A stretch of DNA of 63,135 nt, counting the filler, from Sandaracinaceae bacterium (GTDB taxonomy: Bacteria; Myxococcota_A; Polyangia; Polyangiales; JADJQN01): NCBI GenBank assembly GCA_947483975.1. It is 3 parts of 3 records of this genome, joined end to end, with 100 filler letters (N's around TTAATTAATTAA, not from the genome) between each part and the next. Parts side by side here need not be neighbours in the genome. Positions count along the whole stretch, not along the records: positions 1 to 21,049 come from CANKOL010000047.1; 2 more parts are not named here. The stretch is one strand, 5' to 3'. The position numbers and the translations under genes are program-made. Below the pieces are notes generated by a model. The model was not told where the DNA came from, ran no database searches, and worked only from the letters and a program-made list of their open reading frames with translations. Positions 3,572-16,096 of this stretch are shown one piece after another. Positions within the stretch are counted from its first letter, which is position 1; each line of letters opens with the position of its first letter.

Positions 3572-5368
3572 TCAGGTCATGCCGAAGAGCATCGGCACGA
3601 GCAGCACGGTCACGGCCATGATGAGCAGGTCGAGCGGCAGGCCCATGCGGACGAAGTCCGTGAAGCGGTAGCCGCCGGGGCCGTAGACCATCAGGTGCGT
3701 CTGGTACGCCGTCGGCAGCGCGAAGCCGCTCGAGCCGGCGATGGCGATGGCGATGGCGAAGGGCATGAACGGCACCCCGAGCGAGAGCGCCGCGGCCTTG
3801 GCGACGGGGAACGCGATCACCACCGCCGCGCTGTGCGTGACGAACTCCGTGCAGAGCAGCGTCGTCAGGTACACGCCGAGCAGCACGCCGCGCGGGCCGA
3901 GCGACGCCGTCAGGCCGACGAGGCCCTCCGCGAGCGTCCCCGCCGCGCCGCTCTTGTCCATCGCCTTGCCGAGGCCGATCGCCGCACCGATGGCGAGCAG
4001 CACGTGCCCGTCGATCGACTTGCGCGCCTGCTCGAGCGAGACGCAGCCCGTCGCGATCATCAGCGTCGCCGCGACCGACGCCGCGATCAGCAGGCTGACG
4101 TGCGTGAAGCTCTCCGCCGCGTTGACCACGACCATCACGCCGAGGATGCCGATGGCCGTCCAGGCGCGGTCGTGTCGCAGCGGCTGCGAGCCTGGCACGC
4201 TGACGAGGAAGAGCTCGCGCGAGTGCCGGTGCGCGTCCACGAAGCGCGGGTGCGCCTCGACGAGCACGGTGTCGCCGACGCGCAGCTCGATGTCGCCGAT
4301 CTTGCGCACGAGCCGCTCGCCGCCGCGGTGCACCGCGATCACCGCCGCGTCGTAGCGCGTGCGGAACCGCGCCTCGCGGATGCTCATCCCGACCACCGGG
4401 CACGAGCGCCCGACGACCGCCTCGACGAGCACGCGGTTCGCGCGCGAGCGGTCAGCGAGCTTGAAGACCTGCTCGGTCGCCGGGCGCAGCCCGCGGATCT
4501 TCTGCAGATCGACGACCGCCTCCACGATGCCGACGAAGATCAGCCGGTCCCCGCCGCGCAGCCGCTGATCGGGCGCGACCGCCACGATCGACTCGCCGTC
4601 GCGCTCGATCTCGACCAGGTACGCGTGCTGCAGGTGCCGGAGCCCCGCGTCCTCGACCGTCTTGCCGTCGACCGCGCTGCCCGGCTCGACCAGCATCTCG
4701 ACCGTGTACTCGCGCGCGTCCTCCTGCGTCGTGCTCGCCGTGCGGCGCTCGGGCAGCAGCCAGCGCGACGCGACGAGGACGTAGACCACGCCGACGATCG
4801 CCGCGGGCACGCCGACCTTCGTGATCGTGAACATCCCCATCGTCGGCAGGTGCGCGTCGACGAGCATCGCCTGCACGATCAGGTTCGTGCTCGTGCCGAT
4901 CAGCGTGCAGATCCCGCCGAAGATCGCGAAGTAGCTGAGCGGGATGAAGAGCTTGCTCGCCGCGAGGCCGGTCTTCTTCGACCAGTCGTTGACCACGGGC
5001 ATGAACATCGCGACGACGGTCGTGTTGTTGAGGAACGCGCTCGCCGCAGTCACCGGCAGCGCCAGCCGCGCCTGCGCCCCGAGCGCGCTCCGCGGCCGTC
5101 CGAGCACCCGGTCCGTCAGCAGCGACATCCCGCCCGTCTGCGAGAGCCCCTCGGCGACCACGAAGAGCACCGCGATCGTGACGATCGCCTCGTTGCCGAA
5201 CCCCGCCGCGAGGTCCCGCGGCCCGGGCAGCCGCTCCGAGAACTCCGACAGCACCCCGATCGCGCCCGCCCCGGCGAGCAGCACGACGTCCGGCGACGCC
5301 AAGCTCCGCACGAGCGCCACCAGACACCCACCGAGCACCGCCAGAGTCGCCCACGCTTCCCAGTGCAC
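3572..5368 (-). CDS. SLC13/CitMHS-family permease with two TrkA-C (RCK_C) domains
   Basis: SAFLNNTTVV, GGICTLIGTSTNL, soluble RCK_C repeats, YQTHLMVYGPGGYRFTDF. Confidence 0.9.
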   Translation of the reverse strand: MHWEAWATLAVLGGCLVALVRSLASPDVVLLAGAGAIGVLSEFSERLPGPRDLAAGFGNEAIVTIAVLFVVAEGLSQTGGMSLLTDRVLGRPRSALGAQARLALPVTAASAFLNNTTVVAMFMPVVNDWSKKTGLAASKLFIPLSYFAIFGGICTLIGTSTNLIVQAMLVDAHLPTMGMFTITKVGVPAAIVGVVYVLVASRWLLPERRTASTTQEDAREYTVEMLVEPGSAVDGKTVEDAGLRHLQHAYLVEIERDGESIVAVAPDQRLRGGDRLIFVGIVEAVVDLQKIRGLRPATEQVFKLADRSRANRVLVEAVVGRSCPVVGMSIREARFRTRYDAAVIAVHRGGERLVRKIGDIELRVGDTVLVEAHPRFVDAHRHSRELFLVSVPGSQPLRHDRAWTAIGILGVMVVVNAAESFTHVSLLIAASVAATLMIATGCVSLEQARKSIDGHVLLAIGAAIGLGKAMDKSGAAGTLAEGLVGLTASLGPRGVLLGVYLTTLLCTEFVTHSAAVVIAFPVAKAAALSLGVPFMPFAIAIAIAGSSGFALPTAYQTHLMVYGPGGYRFTDFVRMGLPLDLLIMAVTVLLVPMLFGMT

Positions 5369-5454
5369 GCTCGGCGTATATCACAGCCTCCCGCGCCGCT
5401 CAGCGTTGCGCGGGAGGGGAGCGCGGGCTCCACCCCGACCTCGGCGACGACTCG

Positions 5455-6142
5455 ATGACGGAGGTGCGGGTCCGGCAGCTGATCGAGGAGTCGATCAGCT
5501 CGAGTATGCTCGAGGGCGCGCGCCCGGCGACGCGCGAGCGCGCGCGACAGCTCGTGCGCGAGGGCAGGGCGCCTGCGACCCACGACGAGCGGATGGTCGT
5601 CCACAACTGGCGCGCCATGGCGCGAATCCCCGCCCTGTGCGCCGAGCGTCGGGCGCTCACCCTCGACGACCTCCGCGAGCTGCACAGCCTCCTCGGAGAG
5701 GGCGCCCTCGCGCGTCGTGGGCGCCGAGGGCGCGTTTCGCGGGGAGGAGCACACCATCACCGTCGCCGACGGGGCCGGGAATATCTGGTTCACGCCGCCG
5801 CCGGCCCGTGGCCTCGAAGACCGCGTCGCCGCGCTGCTCCGCTTCGCTGACGGGCGCGAGGGGGCGGACTTCGTCCACCCGATCGTCCGCGCCGTCCTCT
5901 GCCACTTCTGGCTCGCCTACGAGCACCCGTTCCGCGACGGCAACGGCCGCGTCGCGCGCGCGCTGTTCTATTGGTGCCTGCTCCGCCACGGCTACGACCT
6001 CGCGGAGTACCTCTCGATCGCGCCGACGACGGCGCGGTGCGCCAGGAACCCCGTGAAGCGACGCCCACGGGAGGGCGCCGATGGCCCCTCTCTCGTCGAG
6101 AGAGAGGGGCGGGCGGGTAGAGCTCGCGCAGCGCGGGGGTGA
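5455..6142 (+). pseudogene. Fic-domain protein, frameshifted and probably truncated
   Basis: IEESISSSMLEGA in one frame, Fic motif HPFRDGNGRVAR in another; frame change near 5710-5720; protein-like sequence ends near 6020, just before a repeat element. Confidence 0.8.
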
Positions 6143-6161
6143 GGACTGCGGAGGTGAGGAC
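6084..6161 (-). repeat. REP-like element of the same family as 1-147
   Basis: Hairpin GCCCCTCTCTC-GTCGA-GAGAGAGGGGC (6084-6110) plus two GTCCTCACC motifs on the minus strand (6135-6161). Confidence 0.7.
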
Positions 6162-6283
6162 CGCATGAACGTCCAACCCCCCCTCCAGCAACGTACTCAA
6201 GCGAACGTTTCACCAGTGGTCGGGTCATGTCGTTGACAGCCCTGGCCGCGTCGATATACTCAGCCAGCTTTCGGGGAGGCTTC

Positions 6284-8405: not shown

Positions 8406-9011
8406 GTGAATATGCGATCCGCCGTGCGCAGTAGCCTCCTCGTCAGCCTCGCGCTCTTGCTGCTCTCCGCCTGCGGGGGAGCGAGCGTGACGACGACGCT
8501 GCCCGTCTTGCCGGGTGACGACACCACGCTCGGCTCGGGCGACGTCTTCGACGTGCGCGTGTTTGGCGAGGCCGACCTCGCGGCGACGTACCGCGTGGCG
8601 CAGGACGGGAGCATCGACTTCCCGCTCGTCGGGCGCCTCGCCGTCGCGGGCCTCGAACCGACTGCCGTGGCGGACCTCCTCTCGGAGCGCCTGCGGAGCG
8701 GGCAGTACCTGCGGGACCCGCAGGTGTCGGTGCTGGTCAAGGAGTACAACTCCAAGCGCATCAGCATCATGGGCGCGGTCGCGCGTCCCGGGACCTTCCC
8801 GATGTCGAGCGGGCTGACCGTCGTGCAGGCGATCAGCTTGGCGGGCGGCTTCACGCCGCTCGCGTCCCGGAACAGCACGGTCGTCAGCCGTCGCGTGAAC
8901 GGCCAGGTCCGCCGCTATCGCGTGCAGGTGGACGACGTCACCGGCGGCGGCGCCAGCGACGTGCCGCTCGCGACGGGCGACATCGTCTTCGTGCCTGAGC
9001 GCGTGTTCTGA
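8406..9011 (+). CDS. wza: Short OPX/Wza polysaccharide export lipoprotein (Poly_export plus one SLBB)
   Basis: Lipobox LSAC; LGSGDVFDVRVFGE, DGSIDFPLVG, GAVARPG, AISLAGGF; ends GDIVFVPERVF with no C-terminal OM helix. Confidence 0.9.
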   Translation: MNMRSAVRSSLLVSLALLLLSACGGASVTTTLPVLPGDDTTLGSGDVFDVRVFGEADLAATYRVAQDGSIDFPLVGRLAVAGLEPTAVADLLSERLRSGQYLRDPQVSVLVKEYNSKRISIMGAVARPGTFPMSSGLTVVQAISLAGGFTPLASRNSTVVSRRVNGQVRRYRVQVDDVTGGGASDVPLATGDIVFVPERVF

Positions 9012-9080
9012 GCGGCTGAGCCAGGGCCGGTAGGTGTCGGTAGCGTTCGCGAGAACGCGCAACTCGCGGTCGCCATCGTC

Positions 9081-9236
9081 GCGAGTGCCCGGCGCTGCCT
9101 CCGCGATGATGCCCGCGACCGGCGCGAGCGCCCGGCGCTGCCTCCGCGATGATGTGTGCCCGCGTGCGGATTGCCGGGCGCTGCCTCCGCGACGATCCCC
9201 GCGACCGGCGCGAGTGCCCGGCGCTGCCTCCGCGAC
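9081..9236. repeat. 43-bp-period tandem repeat x4
   Basis: Core GGCGCTGCCTCCGCGA at 9091, 9134, 9177 and 9220. Confidence 0.9.
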
Positions 9237-9430
9237 GGTCCGCATGACCAGACGACGGGCTGCCTTGGGGGTGGAAACCGGCATTTCTTCCCGTGTTTCT
9301 CGGTGGTGGCGTCGGCACGTTGTGACCGTCGAGTGCCTCAGTTGGCCTCGGAGCGCGCGAACAGCATCCTCGAGGGGGCGCGCATGGTTGAAAACGCCCC
9401 CTTTGGGCTCGCGGGCCGATGCGCGGGCAT

Positions 9431-9653
9431 CGAAAGGCGAGGTCCCCGCCTCTGAAACGCGAGTCCCCACGGGGAATGGCCCCCGGAAGGCGGGGATCCG
9501 CGTTTTTTTACCGGGGACCGGCGTTTTCGGGACCGGGGACCGGCGCTTTTTTGTTGGGGACTGGCGTTTTCGGAAGGGGGGATGAGCGTTTTAAACGTGG
9601 GGATCGGCGTTTTTTGAGCGGGGACCGGCGGTCGCGGACCGGGGACCGGCGCG
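9431..9653. repeat. Phased 21/22-bp array of GGGGAYCGGCGTTTT-like motifs (9 direct, 2 inverted)
   Basis: GGGGA starts at 9471, 9492, 9513, 9535, 9556, 9578, 9599, 9620, 9641; inverted copies end in GTCCCC at 9447 and 9468. Confidence 0.85.
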
Positions 9654-9835
9654 CGCGACGTCTTTGGGGCCGTTCGCGGCCGCAAGATGGCGCCTGGTGA
9701 GGCCCCTCCTTGGGTGCGCATGGTCAACTGGTTCCTCCGCAGGCGGATAAAGACACAAAATTCCGTTGACGGCTTTGAGCGGTTTTGAGCACATTTTCCC
9801 CGCGGCCGACAGGGGTAGCGGCCAACGGAGGAGAC

Positions 9836-10615
9836 ATGGCGAGATTGACGATTGGTCAGAAGGCGACCCGCGTGCTCGAGTTCTTGATGGGCCTGCGCAA
9901 CCGGCGGGCCGCGTGGCGGCTCGCCGCGCACGGCATGATGCCAGCCGACGTGGATCGCGGTTGGCAGCTCCTGCGCGAGCTGACGCGCGGTCGGCTCGAC
10001 CTCAGCGCCCTGCCCACGGAGCCGGATCCGAAGCTGTTGCTCGTGCTCGACGCCTGGGAGAACCAGTGGTTCCCCATCGTGGGGGCGTCGCTCCGGACGC
10101 GGTTTCCTGCCGTGTACGCGTTCGTCTTCAACAACCTCACGCAGACCGACGGTGCGGAGGTGATCCTCTCGGTCGGCACGCTGCTCGAGCGGATCGACGC
10201 GCTCGGCACGCTCGCGCAGGGTGCGGAGGCACGCGCGTTGCTCGTGCAGCGCGGGCTCACCGAGCCGGTGCTCGCGGACGCGAGGAGGCTGCTCGCGGAC
10301 CTCGGCACCTTCGACGGGTCCTTCGACCCCACGCGCAGCGTCAGCGAGGCTGACGAGCTCGCGCGCGAGACCGCGCTCTGGGACTGGTATCTCGAGTGGA
10401 GCACGATCGCTCGCGCCGTCGTCGATGACCGCACGGCGCTGCGCGCGCTCGGCTTCTTGAGCGGGCGCCCAGGTGGCGAGCTCGACGACGGGACGGGCGT
10501 GAACCCCGATGCGCCGGTCGTCGCGGCGCCCGCGCCGACGAACGGCGGCAGCGTCGTCACGCCGCGCGTCGCGCCTGGGATGCCTGGCTCGGATCCCTTC
10601 GACACGCGCGCGTGA
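9836..10615 (+). CDS. Hypothetical alpha-helical protein (259 aa), coupled to the ATPase gene
   Basis: Strong GGAGGAG RBS before ATG 9836; Trp-rich motifs (LDAWENQWFP, LWDWYLEWSTIAR); GTGA overlap with the next gene. Confidence 0.85.
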   Translation: MARLTIGQKATRVLEFLMGLRNRRAAWRLAAHGMMPADVDRGWQLLRELTRGRLDLSALPTEPDPKLLLVLDAWENQWFPIVGASLRTRFPAVYAFVFNNLTQTDGAEVILSVGTLLERIDALGTLAQGAEARALLVQRGLTEPVLADARRLLADLGTFDGSFDPTRSVSEADELARETALWDWYLEWSTIARAVVDDRTALRALGFLSGRPGGELDDGTGVNPDAPVVAAPAPTNGGSVVTPRVAPGMPGSDPFDTRA

Positions 10616-12024
10616 CCGTCGAGCTGCACATGGGCCAGGCGCGGCCCGTCGAGAGCACCGCGCGGCCGACGCCGTATGCCCTGCCTGCCCACCACCTCGT
10701 GACGCACGCGGTGGTGGTGGGCATGACGGGCAGCGGCAAGACCGGGCTGATCACGGTGATGGTCGAGGAGGCGCTGCGCGCAGAGGTGCCCGTCCTGGTC
10801 ATCGACGTGAAGGGCGATCTGCCGAACCTGCTGCTCGCGTTCCCGTCGTTCGACCCCGCGCTCGTGCGGCCGTGGGCCGAGGCGTCTCGGTCGGCGAGCG
10901 AGACGCGCACCCTCGACGAGGTCACTGCAGCGCTCGCGGAGGAGCGCATGGCGAGCCTGCTCGGCTGGGGCATCGACGAGCCCGCCCTGCGCGCGTTTCA
11001 CGACAAGACCGACGTGCGAGTGATCACGCCGGGCTCGACGGCGGGGGAGTCGCTGCATCTGCTCTCGTCGCTCGAGCGCCGGTCGGCGCGGTGGGACACG
11101 GACCTCGAGACCGCGCGCGCGACGCTGAGCGCGGCCATCTCGCTGGTGCTGCGCCTGCTCGGGCGCGACCCCGATCCGGCCAAGAGCCGCGAGCACGTGC
11201 TCTTGAGCGTGCTCGCCGAGCGGCGCCTGCTCGCCGGGGAGTCTGCGGAGCTGGGCGCGCTGCTGCGCGACGTGCTCGAGCCGCCCGTCGAGGAGATCGG
11301 CGCGCTGTCGATCGACGAGTTCCTGTCCAAGAGCGACCGGCGCGCGCTCGCGGCGGGGCTGAACACGCTGCTCGCGTCGCCGACGTTCGCGGGCTGGCGG
11401 CAGGGCGCGACGCTCGACGTCGGCGAGTGGATGACGCCGAAGGACGGGCGCACGCCGGTCGTCGTCTTGAGCGTCGCGCACCTCGACGACGACGAGCGCG
11501 CGCTGGTGCTCGGCGTGGTGATGGAGGAGGTGCTGTCGTGGGTGCGCACGCTCCCCGGGAGCCAGCGCCTGCGGGGGCTCGTGGTGTTCGACGAGGTGTA
11601 CGGCTTCATCCCGCCGCACCCCGCGAACCCGCCGACCAAGCGGCCCATCGTGGCGCTGATGAAGCAGGCGCGCGCGTTCGGCGTGGGCGTGGTCGTCGCG
11701 ACGCAGAACCCGATGGACCTCGACTACAGGGCGCTCGGCAACGCGGGCGTCTGGTGCGTGGGGCGCCTGCAGACTGACGCCGACCGCGCGCGCGTCGTCG
11801 ACGGGCTCGCCGTGGACGGGGACCGCGCGAGCGCGCAGCAGCTCGGCAAGCTGGTGCAGCGCATCGCGCCGCGGTGGTTCGTGCTGCGCGACGTGCACGC
11901 GGGCGACGCGGTGCTGATGCAGCCGCGCTATGCGATGTCGCTGCTCAGGGGGCCGATGACGCGCAGCGAGCTGGTGGCGGCGCGGGCGGCGCATCACGAC
12001 GAGCCTGCCGAGCCCCGCGTGTAG
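10612..12024 (+). CDS. HerA/FtsK-superfamily (DUF87/DUF853-like) P-loop ATPase
   Basis: HAVVVGMTGSGKT (Walker A), IDVKGD, VVFDEVYG (Walker B), KQARAFG, ATQNPMDLDY. Confidence 0.88.
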   Translation: MTVELHMGQARPVESTARPTPYALPAHHLVTHAVVVGMTGSGKTGLITVMVEEALRAEVPVLVIDVKGDLPNLLLAFPSFDPALVRPWAEASRSASETRTLDEVTAALAEERMASLLGWGIDEPALRAFHDKTDVRVITPGSTAGESLHLLSSLERRSARWDTDLETARATLSAAISLVLRLLGRDPDPAKSREHVLLSVLAERRLLAGESAELGALLRDVLEPPVEEIGALSIDEFLSKSDRRALAAGLNTLLASPTFAGWRQGATLDVGEWMTPKDGRTPVVVLSVAHLDDDERALVLGVVMEEVLSWVRTLPGSQRLRGLVVFDEVYGFIPPHPANPPTKRPIVALMKQARAFGVGVVVATQNPMDLDYRALGNAGVWCVGRLQTDADRARVVDGLAVDGDRASAQQLGKLVQRIAPRWFVLRDVHAGDAVLMQPRYAMSLLRGPMTRSELVAARAAHHDEPAEPRV

Positions 12025-12137: not shown

Positions 12138-12368
12138 ATGAGCACCGACCGTATCGAGACGAACCCCGCCACGCTCGGCGGCAAGCCGGTCATCCGTGGC
12201 ACGCGCATCTCGGTCGAGCTCGTGCTTCGCAAGCTCGCCGACGGTGCGACCGAAGCCGAGTTACTCGACGGCTACCCGCGCCTGACGCGCGAAGATATCC
12301 GCGCCGCGCTCGCCTACGCGGCCGACACCGTCGCGCAGGAGGTCTTCCTCAACGCGAAAAGCGCGTGA
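12138..12368 (+). CDS. DUF433-family antitoxin
   Basis: GGKPVIRGTRISVELVL...YPRLTREDIRAALAYA; AGGA RBS. Confidence 0.9.
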   Translation: MSTDRIETNPATLGGKPVIRGTRISVELVLRKLADGATEAELLDGYPRLTREDIRAALAYAADTVAQEVFLNAKSA

Positions 12369-12735
12369 CTGCGGCAGCGCTCCGCTTCCTCGCCGACGAG
12401 AACTGCGACTTCGCGGTCGTTCGCGCCCTCCGAGCGGCCGGGTTCGACGTGCTCGCCGTCGCGGAGCACGGATGCGGCACCGACGATCGCGAGCTCCTGG
12501 CGCGCGCTTCGCGCGAGCGGCGGATCGTGCTCACCGAGGACAAGGACTTCGGGTGGCTGGTGTTCGTCAGCGAGGACGACTCCTCGGGAGTCATCCTCAT
12601 CCGCTTTCCGGCCGGCGCTCGCGCAGCGTTGGTCCCGCCGTGTGCGACCTCGTGCATGATCATGCTGACGCGCTCCCTGGCGCCTTTGCCTCGGTCGAGC
12701 CGGGCCGCGTGCGCCTCACGCGACGGCCAATTTAG
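12365..12735 (+). pseudogene. DUF5615 PIN-like toxin, frameshifted near 12635
   Basis: FLADEN, DDRELL, VLTEDKDFG, GVILIR in one frame; the expected C-terminus (GAFASVEPGRVRL*) is in another frame ending at TAG 12735. Confidence 0.8.
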
Positions 12736-12804
12736 GGGGAACGTTTCGGTCTCTCCTCGCGCCGCGCGGAGGGTGGTGACGGCGAGCGGGCGGAGCAGAA
12801 GGCG

Positions 12805-12885
12805 TATCTGCTGCAGCCGCGCTGGGCGATGTCCTACCTGCGCGGACCGATGACGCGGAGCGAGATCAAGCGGGCTGTGGCGGCG
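12805..12885 (+). pseudogene. Relic second copy of the 3' end of the HerA-like ATPase gene
   Basis: Encodes YLLQPRWAMSYLRGPMTRSEI versus VLMQPRYAMSLLRGPMTRSEL in the intact gene; 46/60 nt identical (12808-12867 vs 11914-11973). Confidence 0.8.
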
Positions 12886-12962
12886 GTGGGTACGCAGCCA
12901 GTTGCGCACGTGCCTACTCAACCAGCAGCTGTCGCGTTATCTTCAGAGTTCGGAGATGCCCC

Positions 12963-13157
12963 ATGACCACGGCCGACCACATCTACGACGAGGTCAAGAC
13001 GCTGCCGGAGTCGCTCGCTCAAGAGGTGCTGGACTTCATCGAGTTCCTCAAGACGCGCAGCGAGCGCTCGCGGGCGACTGACCTGATGCGCGCGCAGGAA
13101 GCGTGTTTGGCGGCGGTCTGGGACAACCCCGAGGACGACGTGTGGAACGATGCTTGA
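12963..13157 (+). CDS. DUF2281-family antitoxin
   Basis: LPESLAQEVLDFIEFL and WDNPEDDVWN; overlaps the toxin start. Confidence 0.85.
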   Translation: MTTADHIYDEVKTLPESLAQEVLDFIEFLKTRSERSRATDLMRAQEACLAAVWDNPEDDVWNDA

Positions 13158-13485
13158 GCCCGGCGTGATCGCCCTGATCCCGTTTCCGTTCTCGGATCTG
13201 TCAGCTGGCAAGCGGCGCCCGGTGCTGCTCCTCAGCCGCCCGGATGAGGTCGGAGACGTGATCTGTTTGGCGATCACGTCCAAGGGCTATCATGCGCACT
13301 CGGTGCCGGTCGATGCCGAGGCCCTTGCCTGGGGCGCGCTGCCGGTGAAGAGCTGGATCCGCACGGACAAGGTGTACACGCTGGCATCGTCGCTCGTCGT
13401 GCGCCGGGTGGCCGATGTTCGCGCCGAAGTCCTGGCGCGATCGTTGGACGGGCTTTGCGCGGTGTTGCAGCCGTCCGGACGCTGA
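13150..13485 (+). CDS. PemK/MazF-family toxin
   Basis: IPFPFSDLSAGKRRPVLLLS, CLAITSK, SWIRTDKVYTL. Confidence 0.9.
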   Translation: MLEPGVIALIPFPFSDLSAGKRRPVLLLSRPDEVGDVICLAITSKGYHAHSVPVDAEALAWGALPVKSWIRTDKVYTLASSLVVRRVADVRAEVLARSLDGLCAVLQPSGR

Positions 13486-13636
13486 AAACCCATCCACGAA
13501 CTCGATGGCCCCCGCGCCTGACGCGCGATTTCGCCCCGGCCCAGCCCGAACGCGTGGACCGCGCCCGAACTAGGCGGGGCGCATGGCGGTAGCGCGCGAT
13601 AGCCATGGGGCGGCGCACCGCCGTGGGCGCAGAAGT

Positions 13637-13966
13637 GGTGGGGCGGGCCGCCGTGCCCGCCCGGCCTTGGTGGGGCGGGCCTCCGTGCCCGCCCCGGTGC
13701 AGCGCCAAAACGCCATCGCGGCGGGCGCACATAAGAGTGGTGGGGCGGGCCTCCGTGCCCGCCCTGGTGCAGCGCCAAAACACCATCGCGGTGGGCGCAA
13801 GAGCGGTGGGGCGGGCCTCCGTGCCCGCCCCGGCGCAGCGCCAAAACGCCATCGAGGCGGGCGCACATAAGAGTGGTGGGGCGGGCCTCCGTGCCCGCCC
13901 TGGCGCAGCGGCAGGGCGCGATAACGGCGGGCGCGATAGTGGTGGGGCGGGCCTCCGTGCCCGCCC
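13637..13966 (+). repeat. Left REP array (6 copies of GGTGGGGCGGGCCTCCGTGCCCGCCC)
   Basis: Copies at 13637, 13669, 13739, 13805, 13875, 13941; GTGG tetranucleotide followed by the hairpin GGCGGGC-N6-GCCCGCC. Confidence 0.92.
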
Positions 13967-13992
13967 TTCCCACACCTGGAAAGACATCAAGC

Positions 13993-14442
13993 GTGGCCAC
14001 CTTCTACCGACGCAGGCTTCCCCATTGGCGCATGAGCGGAGCCACCTACTTCGTGACCTGGCGGCTCCACCCCGGCCAAGCCGATCTCACGCCCGACGAG
14101 AGGACGGTGGTCTTCAGGGCGATCGAGCACTTCAACGGCGATCGCTACGACCTGAGCGCGTACGTCGTCATGAACGACCACGTCCACGTTCTCTTCACGC
14201 CCACCGGTTCGCACCGAGTCGAAGACCTGGTCCGTGCGTGGAAATCGTTCACCGCGAACCTCCTACAGCGAACGACGGGGCGCGGCGGGCGCGTCTGGCA
14301 GGACGAGTACTTCGATCGCGTCATCCGCGACGAAGACGAGCTCTTCGACAAGGCGAAGTACATCGTCGACAACCCGTGGAAGCGCTGGCCAGACATCGCC
14401 GACTACGCATGGGTTGGCTTCAGAGGCTCGGCGGAAGTGTGA
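13993..14442 (+). mobile_element. REP-associated tyrosine transposase (RAYT/TnpA-REP, Y1 HUH)
   Basis: RRRLPHW, YFVTWRL, YVVMNDHVH (HUH), VWQDEYFDRVIRD, YIVDNP (catalytic Tyr); REP arrays on both sides. Confidence 0.92.
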
Positions 14443-14450
14443 AGTCGGCC

Positions 14451-14860
14451 GGGCGGGCGCGGAGGCCCGCCCCACCAGGCAATACACGCCGGGCGGGCGC
14501 GGAGGCCCGCCCCACCAAGGCCGGCGCGCTGTGACCTTGGGCGGGCGCGGAGGCCCGCCCCACCAGGCAATATACGCAGGGCGGGCGCGGAGGCCCGCCC
14601 CACCAGGCAATACACGCAGGGCGGGCGCGGAGGCCCGCCCCACCAGGCAATATACGCAGGGCGGGCGCGGAGGCCCGCCCCACCATAGAGAGCACCACCC
14701 CACCAGGCAATATACGCAGGGCGGGCGCGGAGGCCCGCCCCGCCATGGAGAGCGCCACCCCACCAAGGCCGGCGCGCTGTGATCTTGGGCGGGCGCGGAG
14801 GCCCGCCCCACCAGGGAGACTACCGCCCCACCAGGGAGACTACCGCCGCACCAGGGAGAC
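14451..14860 (-). repeat. Right REP array (8 copies, inverted) plus a 20-bp degenerate tail repeat
   Basis: GGGCGGGCGCGGAGGCCCGCCCCACC at 14451, 14491, 14539, 14579, 14619, 14659, 14719 (variant) and 14787; CACCAGGGAGAC x3 up to 14860. Confidence 0.92.
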
Positions 14861-14967
14861 CTCGCTGGCCAGCTGACGTGGCGCGGCGATCCACTCGCCG
14901 AGCAGAAGAGAATCCGGGATGAGTGGAGCTAGGCTCCTCTTGGACACCAACGGGGTCGTGGCGTCCT

Positions 14968-15804
14968 TCAGCTGTGCGAGGAGTGGCGCTGCGCGAGCAC
15001 GGCCATGTACTCGTCGACGATCATCTCGTGAGCGGCGGCGAGCTTTCTGAGCGACTCGATGTGCGGCACGGTCTCGCCGGACTCGATGCGCCGCACCTCA
15101 CGCTCGCTGAGCCCGGAGACCTCCGTCTGCTTGATGCCTCGCTCGACACGAAGGGCTCGAATCGCGCTCGCATAGCGCGATGCCTCCCGCCGCGCCTTGG
15201 ACTCGTGCGCGGCCTTCACGGCGGGGTCTGCGTGCTCGCGAACGGTGTCGAGGTTGAGGTCGATGTCGGCCTCGGGCCATCGGATCCTGCTTCCGCTCGC
15301 GCTCACCTCGAAGCGAAGAAGTGCGTCGGCATCCAGGTCCGCGAGCGCGTGAAGCTCCGCGACCGGCACGACGTAGCGGATCGGCTCGCAGCTCCACACG
15401 ACGAGCTTGTCGTCCTCGATGGCGGCGGACGCGATGAGCGCCTTCTCTGCGTGGTTGCGACGCGCAAGGATCAGGCGGCGGATGGCATCCAGGTTCGGTG
15501 CGACGTAGGGCACGTCACGCGTCTGCTGTGAAAGGCGGCCAAATGCCTGTAGAGCGACGACGGCGATGGCGGCCACGCCGATCGAGAACAGAACGACGAG
15601 GCGCTCTTCCTTCGGCACCTGGCGAAGAAGCTCGTCGAGCGCCGCGCGCCCGCTGGCGGTGTTGAGGCTGTCGAGCGGGCTCACGACGAGCCGAGACGTG
15701 CTTCCGGCCGAAGGCCGAGAATGGAACCGGGCCGAGGGAAGCGGCCCGAGCGCGCGCTTCACCCGCGACATGGAGTCCTGCGGAACGAGAATCTCGACGG
15801 TCAT
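14968..15804 (-). CDS. DUF2442 plus XRE-HTH antitoxin-like protein with an N-terminal extension
   Basis: FEVSASGSRIRWPEADIDL (DUF2442-like), IRALRVERGIKQTEV...VRRIESG (HTH); downstream of a DUF4160 gene. Confidence 0.75.
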   Translation of the reverse strand: MTVEILVPQDSMSRVKRALGPLPSARFHSRPSAGSTSRLVVSPLDSLNTASGRAALDELLRQVPKEERLVVLFSIGVAAIAVVALQAFGRLSQQTRDVPYVAPNLDAIRRLILARRNHAEKALIASAAIEDDKLVVWSCEPIRYVVPVAELHALADLDADALLRFEVSASGSRIRWPEADIDLNLDTVREHADPAVKAAHESKARREASRYASAIRALRVERGIKQTEVSGLSEREVRRIESGETVPHIESLRKLAAAHEMIVDEYMAVLAQRHSSHS

Positions 15805-15808
15805 CGTG

Positions 15809-16096
15809 TCACCTCGCTGCTCCCGGAGCCTTCACGCTAACCTTCGCTTCCCACTCGGTGAGGAGGGCTTCGCGGTTGGCCTCGACCGCCCGCGCCAGCG
15901 CCTTCAGGTCGCTCTTGTTGGGTCGCCCTGTGGCCATGCTCCAGCTCGGCTCGAACATCTCCGCGGCGGCCCGGAGGAAGTAGACTCGGACCTCCCAGTC
16001 GCCCGGCTTCTCCGCGTGGAAGTGAGGCGGCAGGTGATCGTCCGAGTTGAACCAGAGGTCGAGTCCATGGCGGGCGAGGGACACGACCTTCGGCAC
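15809..16096 (-). CDS. DUF4160-family toxin-like protein
   Basis: FNSDDHLPPHFHAE motif and NREALLTEWE C-terminus. Confidence 0.85.
   Translation of the reverse strand: MPKVVSLARHGLDLWFNSDDHLPPHFHAEKPGDWEVRVYFLRAAAEMFEPSWSMATGRPNKSDLKALARAVEANREALLTEWEAKVSVKAPGAAR

Follow-up and report, generated by a model that had tools for sequence, protein, structure and literature searches.

A two-arm, 21-bp phased DNA array upstream of an all-helical protein gene in Sandaracinaceae, with a HerA/FtsK-type ATPase as occasional partner

Upstream of the gene of a 259-amino-acid (aa) all-helical protein of a Sandaracinaceae bacterium (assembly GCA_947483975.1) lies an array of short G-rich units, spaced by about two helical turns, that run outward in two arms from a single dyad. 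The window (the whole stretch of DNA that was analysed, 63,135 nucleotides (nt) with filler included) carries this array, the protein gene (P0001, 9836..10615, plus strand), which belongs to what we call family A, and an overlapping gene for a HerA/FtsK-type ATPase. Arrays of the same period precede most family A homologues, and one residue of the protein co-varies with one base of the units. The array-protein module, with the ATPase as an accessory motor, is real, conserved and, it appears, undescribed. Our best overall explanation, which we regard as reasonably probable, is that the array is a duplex DNA platform for the adjacent protein, with a motor recruited by the tail of the protein and a role in conflict.

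The phased array and its conservation upstream of homologues

The right, long arm of the array (9471..9661, plus strand) contains nine GGGGA units, starting at 9471, 9492, 9513, 9535, 9556, 9578, 9599, 9620 and 9641. The steps between them (21, 21, 22, 21, 22, 21, 21 and 21 base pairs (bp)) reproduce those of the preliminary description of this DNA. The two inverted copies which that description had placed across a dyad were confirmed as well: the left, short arm (9427..9468, minus strand) holds two units whose GGGG starts, 9468 and 9447, are 21 bp apart. The arms meet at the central dyad TCCCC-AC-GGGGA (9464..9475, no strand), the proposed nucleation site, whose geometry recurs at the centres of homologous arrays. 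The units are polar and only the array as a whole has a dyad, there being no palindrome per unit. Its lag-21 autocorrelation gave z = 14.1 against dinucleotide shuffles. The 22-bp steps and the variable bases between motifs had been taken to mean neither a coding repeat nor a recent duplication. The first part stands, as the 22-bp steps and the lack of a consistent reading frame rule out a coding repeat; the second needs qualifying, since alternate units are alike (a 43-bp super-period) and the variation among units is not free of duplication history.

In the genome as a whole (G000, 5.29 Mb scanned, 81% complete), the window array, with its 9 units, is the only chain of more than three phased GGGG[AG] units. 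Two three-unit chains were found, one 5' of the paralogue on contig C127 and one on C256. With up to two mismatches the motif occurs 22 times, six times inside the window array and 16 times as singletons. The idea of a dispersed genome-wide repeat was ruled out by these motif and phased-chain searches. The array was moreover assembled independently, and nearly unchanged, in two other runs from two studies: contig X3 spans 8939-10024 with 5 differences from the window and contig X5 spans 9457-10831 with 3.

To see how far the array goes with the gene, homologue loci were gathered (141, of which 140 match a profile trimmed to the folded core), and 97 were kept after near-duplicates, loci with less than 300 nt upstream and late-starting matches had been dropped. 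Periodicity was called at lags 20-22 with z of at least 4, and windows 900-1400 nt upstream served as controls. The check proposed in the preliminary description came out clearly: a 21-bp periodicity was found upstream of 69 of the 97 deduplicated loci versus 4 of 67 control windows, and upstream of 28 of 37 held-out loci, where the shuffle was of a simpler kind. Of the 75 core loci, 21 had two arms, the C-rich one before the G-rich one, 12 had G units only, 12 C units only, 2 another arrangement and 28 none; the threshold for calling an arm was conservative (the window itself shows only four units under it). The gap at the centre was 3-8 modulo 21 in 19 of the 21 two-arm loci, several of which are kin, and the arms are therefore in register about one axis. 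Arms are commonly unequal (2+9 units in the window, 8+2 in Polyangium, a single arm in many loci), they hold up to 17 sites in all (locus L112), and in most loci the array ends 100-250 nt 5' of the start codon.

The layout outlasts the motif. Two arms with a 21-bp period persist with other motifs in L070, L098, L124, L128, L129, L130, L133 and L137, and the non-G4 motifs require at least five changes on the tree; period and two-arm geometry are preserved among proteins only 25-50% identical while the motif changes. Taken together, the array is supported as a cis element of the helical gene.

The family A protein and the residue-to-base code

When protein columns were compared with array positions, residue 3 (Lys or Arg) was found to track the base adjoining GGGG. 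Read in the frame of the upstream GA, the units are GGGGA where the protein has Arg3 and GGGGG where it has Lys3. This pair ranked at the top of 22,847 phylogenetically corrected tests (60 loci, t = 11.9), and none of 2000 permutations reached its score; disjoint tree contrasts went in the same direction in 13 of 14 cases (p = 0.002). Sister pairs keep their own clade-specific N-termini while codon 3 differs by one base, which argues against an exchange of whole 5' blocks. In the held-out loci the share of units with five or more G was 0.72 for Lys (7 loci) versus 0.20 for Arg (16 loci), a contrast with p = 1.6e-4, not corrected for kinship. The window obeys the rule: its codon 3 (9842..9844, plus strand) encodes Arg, and 10 of the 11 units have exactly four G. 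Such co-variation points to direct recognition of the array by the protein. It is the strongest evidence we have that P0001 contacts its own array, a contact that we hold to be very probable.

In the protein, two internal repeats (96% probability) make up a fold of ~205 residues, which is followed by a disordered, Pro-rich tail. Its structure is predicted to be all-helical, with the tail disordered from about residue 210 (predicted local distance difference test score (pLDDT) 84, predicted template modelling score 0.52). The family is large, with 1,209 relatives at E<=0.001 counted as 50%-identity representatives. The preliminary description could not match the two-gene module to a named system, and P0001 has zero family matches in Pfam, NCBIfam and PADLOC, and 149 aligned members gave only scattered weak Pfam matches (25 of 29 families listed). 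Searches of the literature, largely restricted to open-access text, found no description of the array, the family or the tail, although one could have been missed. The model has no significant match among PDB structures (two methods, Foldseek included) or viral structures. Homologues lie on chromosomes, and tblastn found no match among 72,556 plasmid and 50,697 phage records. Longer fused forms, which were also looked for, were not found, weak evidence in itself. The genome of the window has two matches to family A. L141 encodes, at 1108-1755, a distant relative of 216 aa that shares the internal repeat; it has close look-alikes in Bacteroidota, and an array is not evident upstream of it.

DUF6261 came up as a language-model neighbour of P0001 (0.86, with 151 shared features, the family being on 16% of members), a lead only. 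Like family A it is an all-helical protein of similar size, but PF19775 matches neither P0001 nor, at E<=0.001, anything in the genome, hhalign of family A against five DUF6261-like proteins found no homology (0.6%), and the array described here differs in being made of polar 21-bp units with one central inversion. DUF6261-like genes of this order have tandem repeats, of the 41-42-bp type, 3' of the stop codon in L172, L174 and L175; in L177 the repeat is shorter (~27 bp).

The ATPase, the tail and the neighbouring genes

The second gene (10612..12024, plus strand) encodes a 470-aa, short-form ATPase of the HerA/FtsK superfamily, related to YjgR and HerA, and overlaps the helical gene through GTGA, both genes being as first described. 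Its motifs (Walker A, Walker B, ATQNP and an arginine-finger-like motif) are intact. It matches only HerA_C, DUF87 and TrwB families and HerA/YjgR structures, the nearest solved relatives being 8wiv and 11kk. PADLOC profiles for HerA and mad8 match it partially. It scores 31 against 800 bits with NF042943, far below the cut-off, as are weak matches to CedB/CedD, TraD and VirB4.

The two genes had been proposed to form one module with the array as its loading site. The cis array stands, and a binder is supported by the co-variation; a fixed two-gene module is not, because the ATPase follows only 4 of 147 family A genes found through the protein. These are the window, L032, L045 and L130, out of 110 loci with at least 300 nt downstream, and none of the 37 held-out loci has it; one more (L169) was found from the ATPase side. 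Seen from that side the linkage is strong: of the 31 close relatives of the short ATPase for which enough upstream sequence was available, 28 are preceded, at a distance of up to 1.5 kb, by a helical gene that belongs to family A, B or C. The profile of family B was built from 16 of these loci. The top upstream period is 40-43 bp in 19 of 24 family B/C genes, and the units look palindromic by eye. Profile comparison found no homology between families A and B (0.3% and 0.9%), and the fold search with a family B model gave no significant match (best Z 8.2). The two fold lists share generic matches (a three-helix bundle for the N- and C-terminal parts, a four-helix bundle for the middle), which hints, and only hints, that the modelled architectures are alike. 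By its gene associations, the ATPase is an accessory common to several unrelated-looking helical families.

What the ATPase-coupled members of these families share is a tail with the consensus PGxPGxxPF. In P0001 it is PGMPGSDPF (residues 247-255; 10574..10600, plus strand), which we propose as an ATPase docking peptide. With a PF tail defined as PF within the last ~27 residues, all 4 ATPase-linked family A proteins have it versus 3 of 106 unlinked ones and 2 of 37 unlinked held-out ones; for family B the figures are 14 of 15 linked versus 5 of 20 unlinked. Co-folding of tail and ATPase scored 0.44, whereas none of three controls rose above 0.00; the runs had at least 44% of their contacts in common and the partner pLDDT was at least 49. 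The mark was attained by 116 of the 157 solved pairs and by 2 of the 215 mismatched ones; only 18 solved pairs, together with both mismatches, attained it at scores of 0.60 or under, so the models weakly support docking. With the co-occurrence, they make it fairly plausible that the tail docks the ATPase.

Family B has ten matches in this genome, three followed by the short ATPase (contigs C206, C131 and C123) and the others on C102, C103, C196, C304, C51, C398 and C474; most of the ten are preceded by a 41-43-bp array of their own. Contig C154 has a more distant ATPase (41% identical). In L167, a further helical-looking gene with a PF tail, outside families A, B and C, stands upstream of an ATPase. 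A separate 43-bp tandem repeat of ~4 copies (9072-9235), between wza and the array of the window, has only weak partial matches elsewhere in the genome; it could be a repetitive extragenic palindromic (REP)-like repeat or a relic of a family-B-type array.

The block formed by array and genes follows wza and is surrounded by toxin-antitoxin genes and a REP-type transposase. Two relatives of the same family have no block after wza, and in another strain (contig X11) the site is occupied by an allele that has diverged. Between the ATPase and the convergent wzc (12138-16096) lie DUF433/DUF5615, PemK-like and DUF4160/DUF2442 helix-turn-helix genes, and an IS200-like (REP-associated tyrosine transposase, RAYT) gene with flanking repeats. 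At 13909, contigs in two runs exit the REP-like region into the start of a Sorangium-type repeat resembling clustered regularly interspaced short palindromic repeats (CRISPR). Further off (5455-6142) there is a Fic-domain gene, seemingly split over two reading frames. In 11 Sorangium loci (L008-L014, L016, L019-L021; ~4290-6200), the array and its gene directly adjoin a long CRISPR array at its leader end; in the loci whose neighbours were identified (L014 and L019), cas2 and cas4-cas1 are on the other side and on the opposite strand. Neither a target-site duplication nor a transposase linked to the cassette was found, and a comparison of duplicated Sorangium loci, swamped by the CRISPR arrays, gave no cassette ends.

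Readings of the array and comparison with known systems

The explanation that we favour for the array is that of a double-stranded DNA binding platform for the protein of the neighbouring gene. Two protomers would occupy the central dyad as a pair, and more would be added outward from them, head-to-tail, at intervals of two helical turns (21 bp); the nucleoprotein track that results would have two-fold symmetry and lie upstream of the gene's promoter. The motif would be read by the N-terminal arm or the first helix, with Arg3 for GGGGA and Lys3 for GGGGG. Where an ATPase gene follows, a PG(M/F/L)PGxxPF-type peptide on the disordered tail would recruit the ATPase ring (HerA-type motors are hexameric), which would strip or move the coated DNA. 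As to purpose, a conflict module in which the protein is held inactive on DNA is a tentative suggestion. The array would keep the protein in an inactive, DNA-bound store, and loss of or damage to the DNA, or the ATPase, would release it, as an addiction device or an anti-phage tripwire. This purpose is favoured because specificity has toggled repeatedly, private paralogues are many, two relatives lack the block at the corresponding site, another strain has a diverged allele there, and the neighbours at some loci are toxin-antitoxin, REP-transposase, CRISPR or cyclic-oligonucleotide-based anti-phage signalling system (CBASS) genes. Autoregulation is likely as a side role.

A number of observations speak against parts of this explanation. 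About a quarter of homologues are without periodicity, the arms of L241 are convergent and those of L245 and L247 mixed. The residue rule has exceptions (Lys with a share of 0.0 in L042, Arg with 0.88 in L100 and 0.75 in L116); when it was restricted to well-supported branches, with a binary cut, 3-5 of 7 pairs went the same way (mean ~4.5) and 0 the opposite way, with a median p of 0.06-0.125, short of significance. The best fold match of the family A model (Z 7.8) is a generic bundle, with no recognisable DNA-binding fold, and the core is not basic (24 K+R, 27 D+E). The ATPase is missing from about 97% of family A loci and is accordingly dispensable for the core function. Two findings weaken the defence reading: family scans revealed no effector domain, and the genes in the flanks are for the most part housekeeping or unrelated ones.

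The alternative that survives best, which we nevertheless judge unlikely, is that the array is an extended autoregulatory operator: the protein would act cooperatively on its own promoter and have its real job elsewhere. The evidence for binding serves it equally well, as does the place of the array end, 100-250 nt before the start codon in most loci. In L265 (2150-2620), one two-arm array (5+8 units) is common to two divergent family A genes, and tandem or divergent family A pairs were seen in other genomes too. Promoter-like motifs were also found. A sequence like those of extracytoplasmic function (ECF) sigma factors, GCAAC-N16-CGA, was found in the interval from array to gene in 11 of 75 family A loci, but in none on the opposite strand, and upstream of ATPases in 10 of 25 loci; it stands 75-115 nt before the start in L040, L112, L158, L171 and others, and is absent from the window locus. 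It differs from GTAA-n16-CGT, the DdvS motif as given in PMC6061681. In the window there is a possible weak promoter, with TTGACG at -70, between array and gene (9766..9795, plus strand), and a ribosome-binding GGAGG at 9827-9831; a sigma-70 consensus scan of the locus called no promoter, and TTGAC at -70 was not significant (12 of 75 family A loci versus 9 on the opposite strand). What argues against the operator is that the array lies upstream of the promoter-like motifs without overlapping them, that the 17 sites of L112 exceed what an operator needs, and that autoregulation leaves a DNA-motor ATPase with a dedicated tail unexplained.

It is improbable, more so than the operator, that the array is a loading site for DNA movement, at which the HerA/FtsK-like translocase would pump chromosomal DNA for segregation or for transfer between cells, as in the clt/TraB system of Streptomyces or at a centromere. 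The architecture (array, binder and NTPase), the weak matches of the ATPase to the DNA-transfer proteins CedB/CedD, TraD and VirB4, and a symmetric two-arm site suited to bidirectional loading all fit. The rarity of the ATPase in family A does not, nor do the multiple unrelated sites per chromosome, the lack of plasmid or phage matches and the lack of consistent mobility or membrane-channel neighbours.

A function as RNA or single-stranded DNA, in the form of a long hairpin or guide-like pieces, is very improbable. The inverted arrangement can pair, the plus strand folds with z = -1.8 (5 of 200 shuffles are as good), and residue-base co-variation would be expected for an RNA ligand too. However, mirror-image units are alike at 5.3 of 14 variable positions versus 5.9 for off-mirror units (7.2 within the same arm) and are no more complementary, the arms are very unequal, the 21-bp period and the 5-modulo-21 centre match duplex geometry, and Rfam gave two sub-threshold chance matches, none near the gathering score. 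Because of the unequal arms, the mirror units that are not more alike and the unremarkable RNA fold, we read the element as duplex DNA sites. Lastly, a neutral tandem repeat hitch-hiking beside the gene, which the homogenised units within an arm, the 43-bp super-period and the other repeats nearby (9072-9235) might suggest, is largely refuted by a period and geometry kept across divergent proteins while the motif changes, and by a motif that tracks one protein residue.

By the features tested, the locus is not a partition system, an iteron replicon or a known HerA defence module. Plasmid partition loci (F sopABC, ParMRC, TubZRC) share with it a helically phased cis array, locus-private specificity and an adjacent binder that may have a flexible NTPase-recruiting tail. 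However, their NTPase is a ParA, actin or tubulin, whereas here it is of the HerA/FtsK type and absent at most loci; their binder is ParB, a ribbon-helix-helix or a winged-helix protein, for none of which P0001 has a match in Pfam or NCBIfam, its fold lists containing only generic helical bundles; and they reside on plasmids, whereas the present loci are chromosomal and multi-copy, without a plasmid match. Iteron replicons (P1, F and R6K, with RepA, RepE and pi) also have direct repeats of 21-22 bp by the gene of the binder, plus an inverted pair. Here, there is no Rep match in Pfam or NCBIfam and none in the fold search, the units have only ~5-10 bases in common, both arms run outward from a single dyad, and the context is not that of a plasmid. 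HerA anti-phage modules (Sir2-HerA, HerA-DUF4297) and YjgR/DUF853 resemble the locus in a small gene translationally coupled to a HerA-superfamily ATPase; they differ in that the partner is here all-helical, without a nuclease or NADase match, and that a cis array is part of the module. Contrary to CRISPR- or TIGR-like RNA arrays, the locus matches no Rfam family, units of the same arm share sequence, and family scans found no Cas or Nop partner at the window locus.

Apparently, then, a two-arm array with a 21-bp period, the residue code and the link between tail and ATPase are all undescribed. We suggest, still more tentatively than the conflict role itself, that they represent one branch of a widespread class of modules, each with an all-helical protein that forms a polymer on a phased array private to it, by way of a simple residue-to-base code. 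The array would be antidote or sensor, the protein being harmless when bound and freed by loss or degradation of the array or by a HerA-like motor acting on the PF tail; one design would underlie families A, B, C and DUF6261, each of them an independent specificity class. For a large unnamed family (1,209 clusters at 50% identity), the present results supply a testable function, with its cognate DNA site and with candidates for the recognition residue and for the docking peptide of the motor. A helical bundle that covers DNA from a dyad outward, with a subunit every two turns, would recognise DNA in a new way and, as its specificity would be toggled by a single base change in the gene, it could serve as an orthogonal DNA scaffold. 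The tail, finally, supplies a first candidate partner for a multi-copy, uncharacterised clade of HerA/YjgR-like ATPases in myxobacteria.

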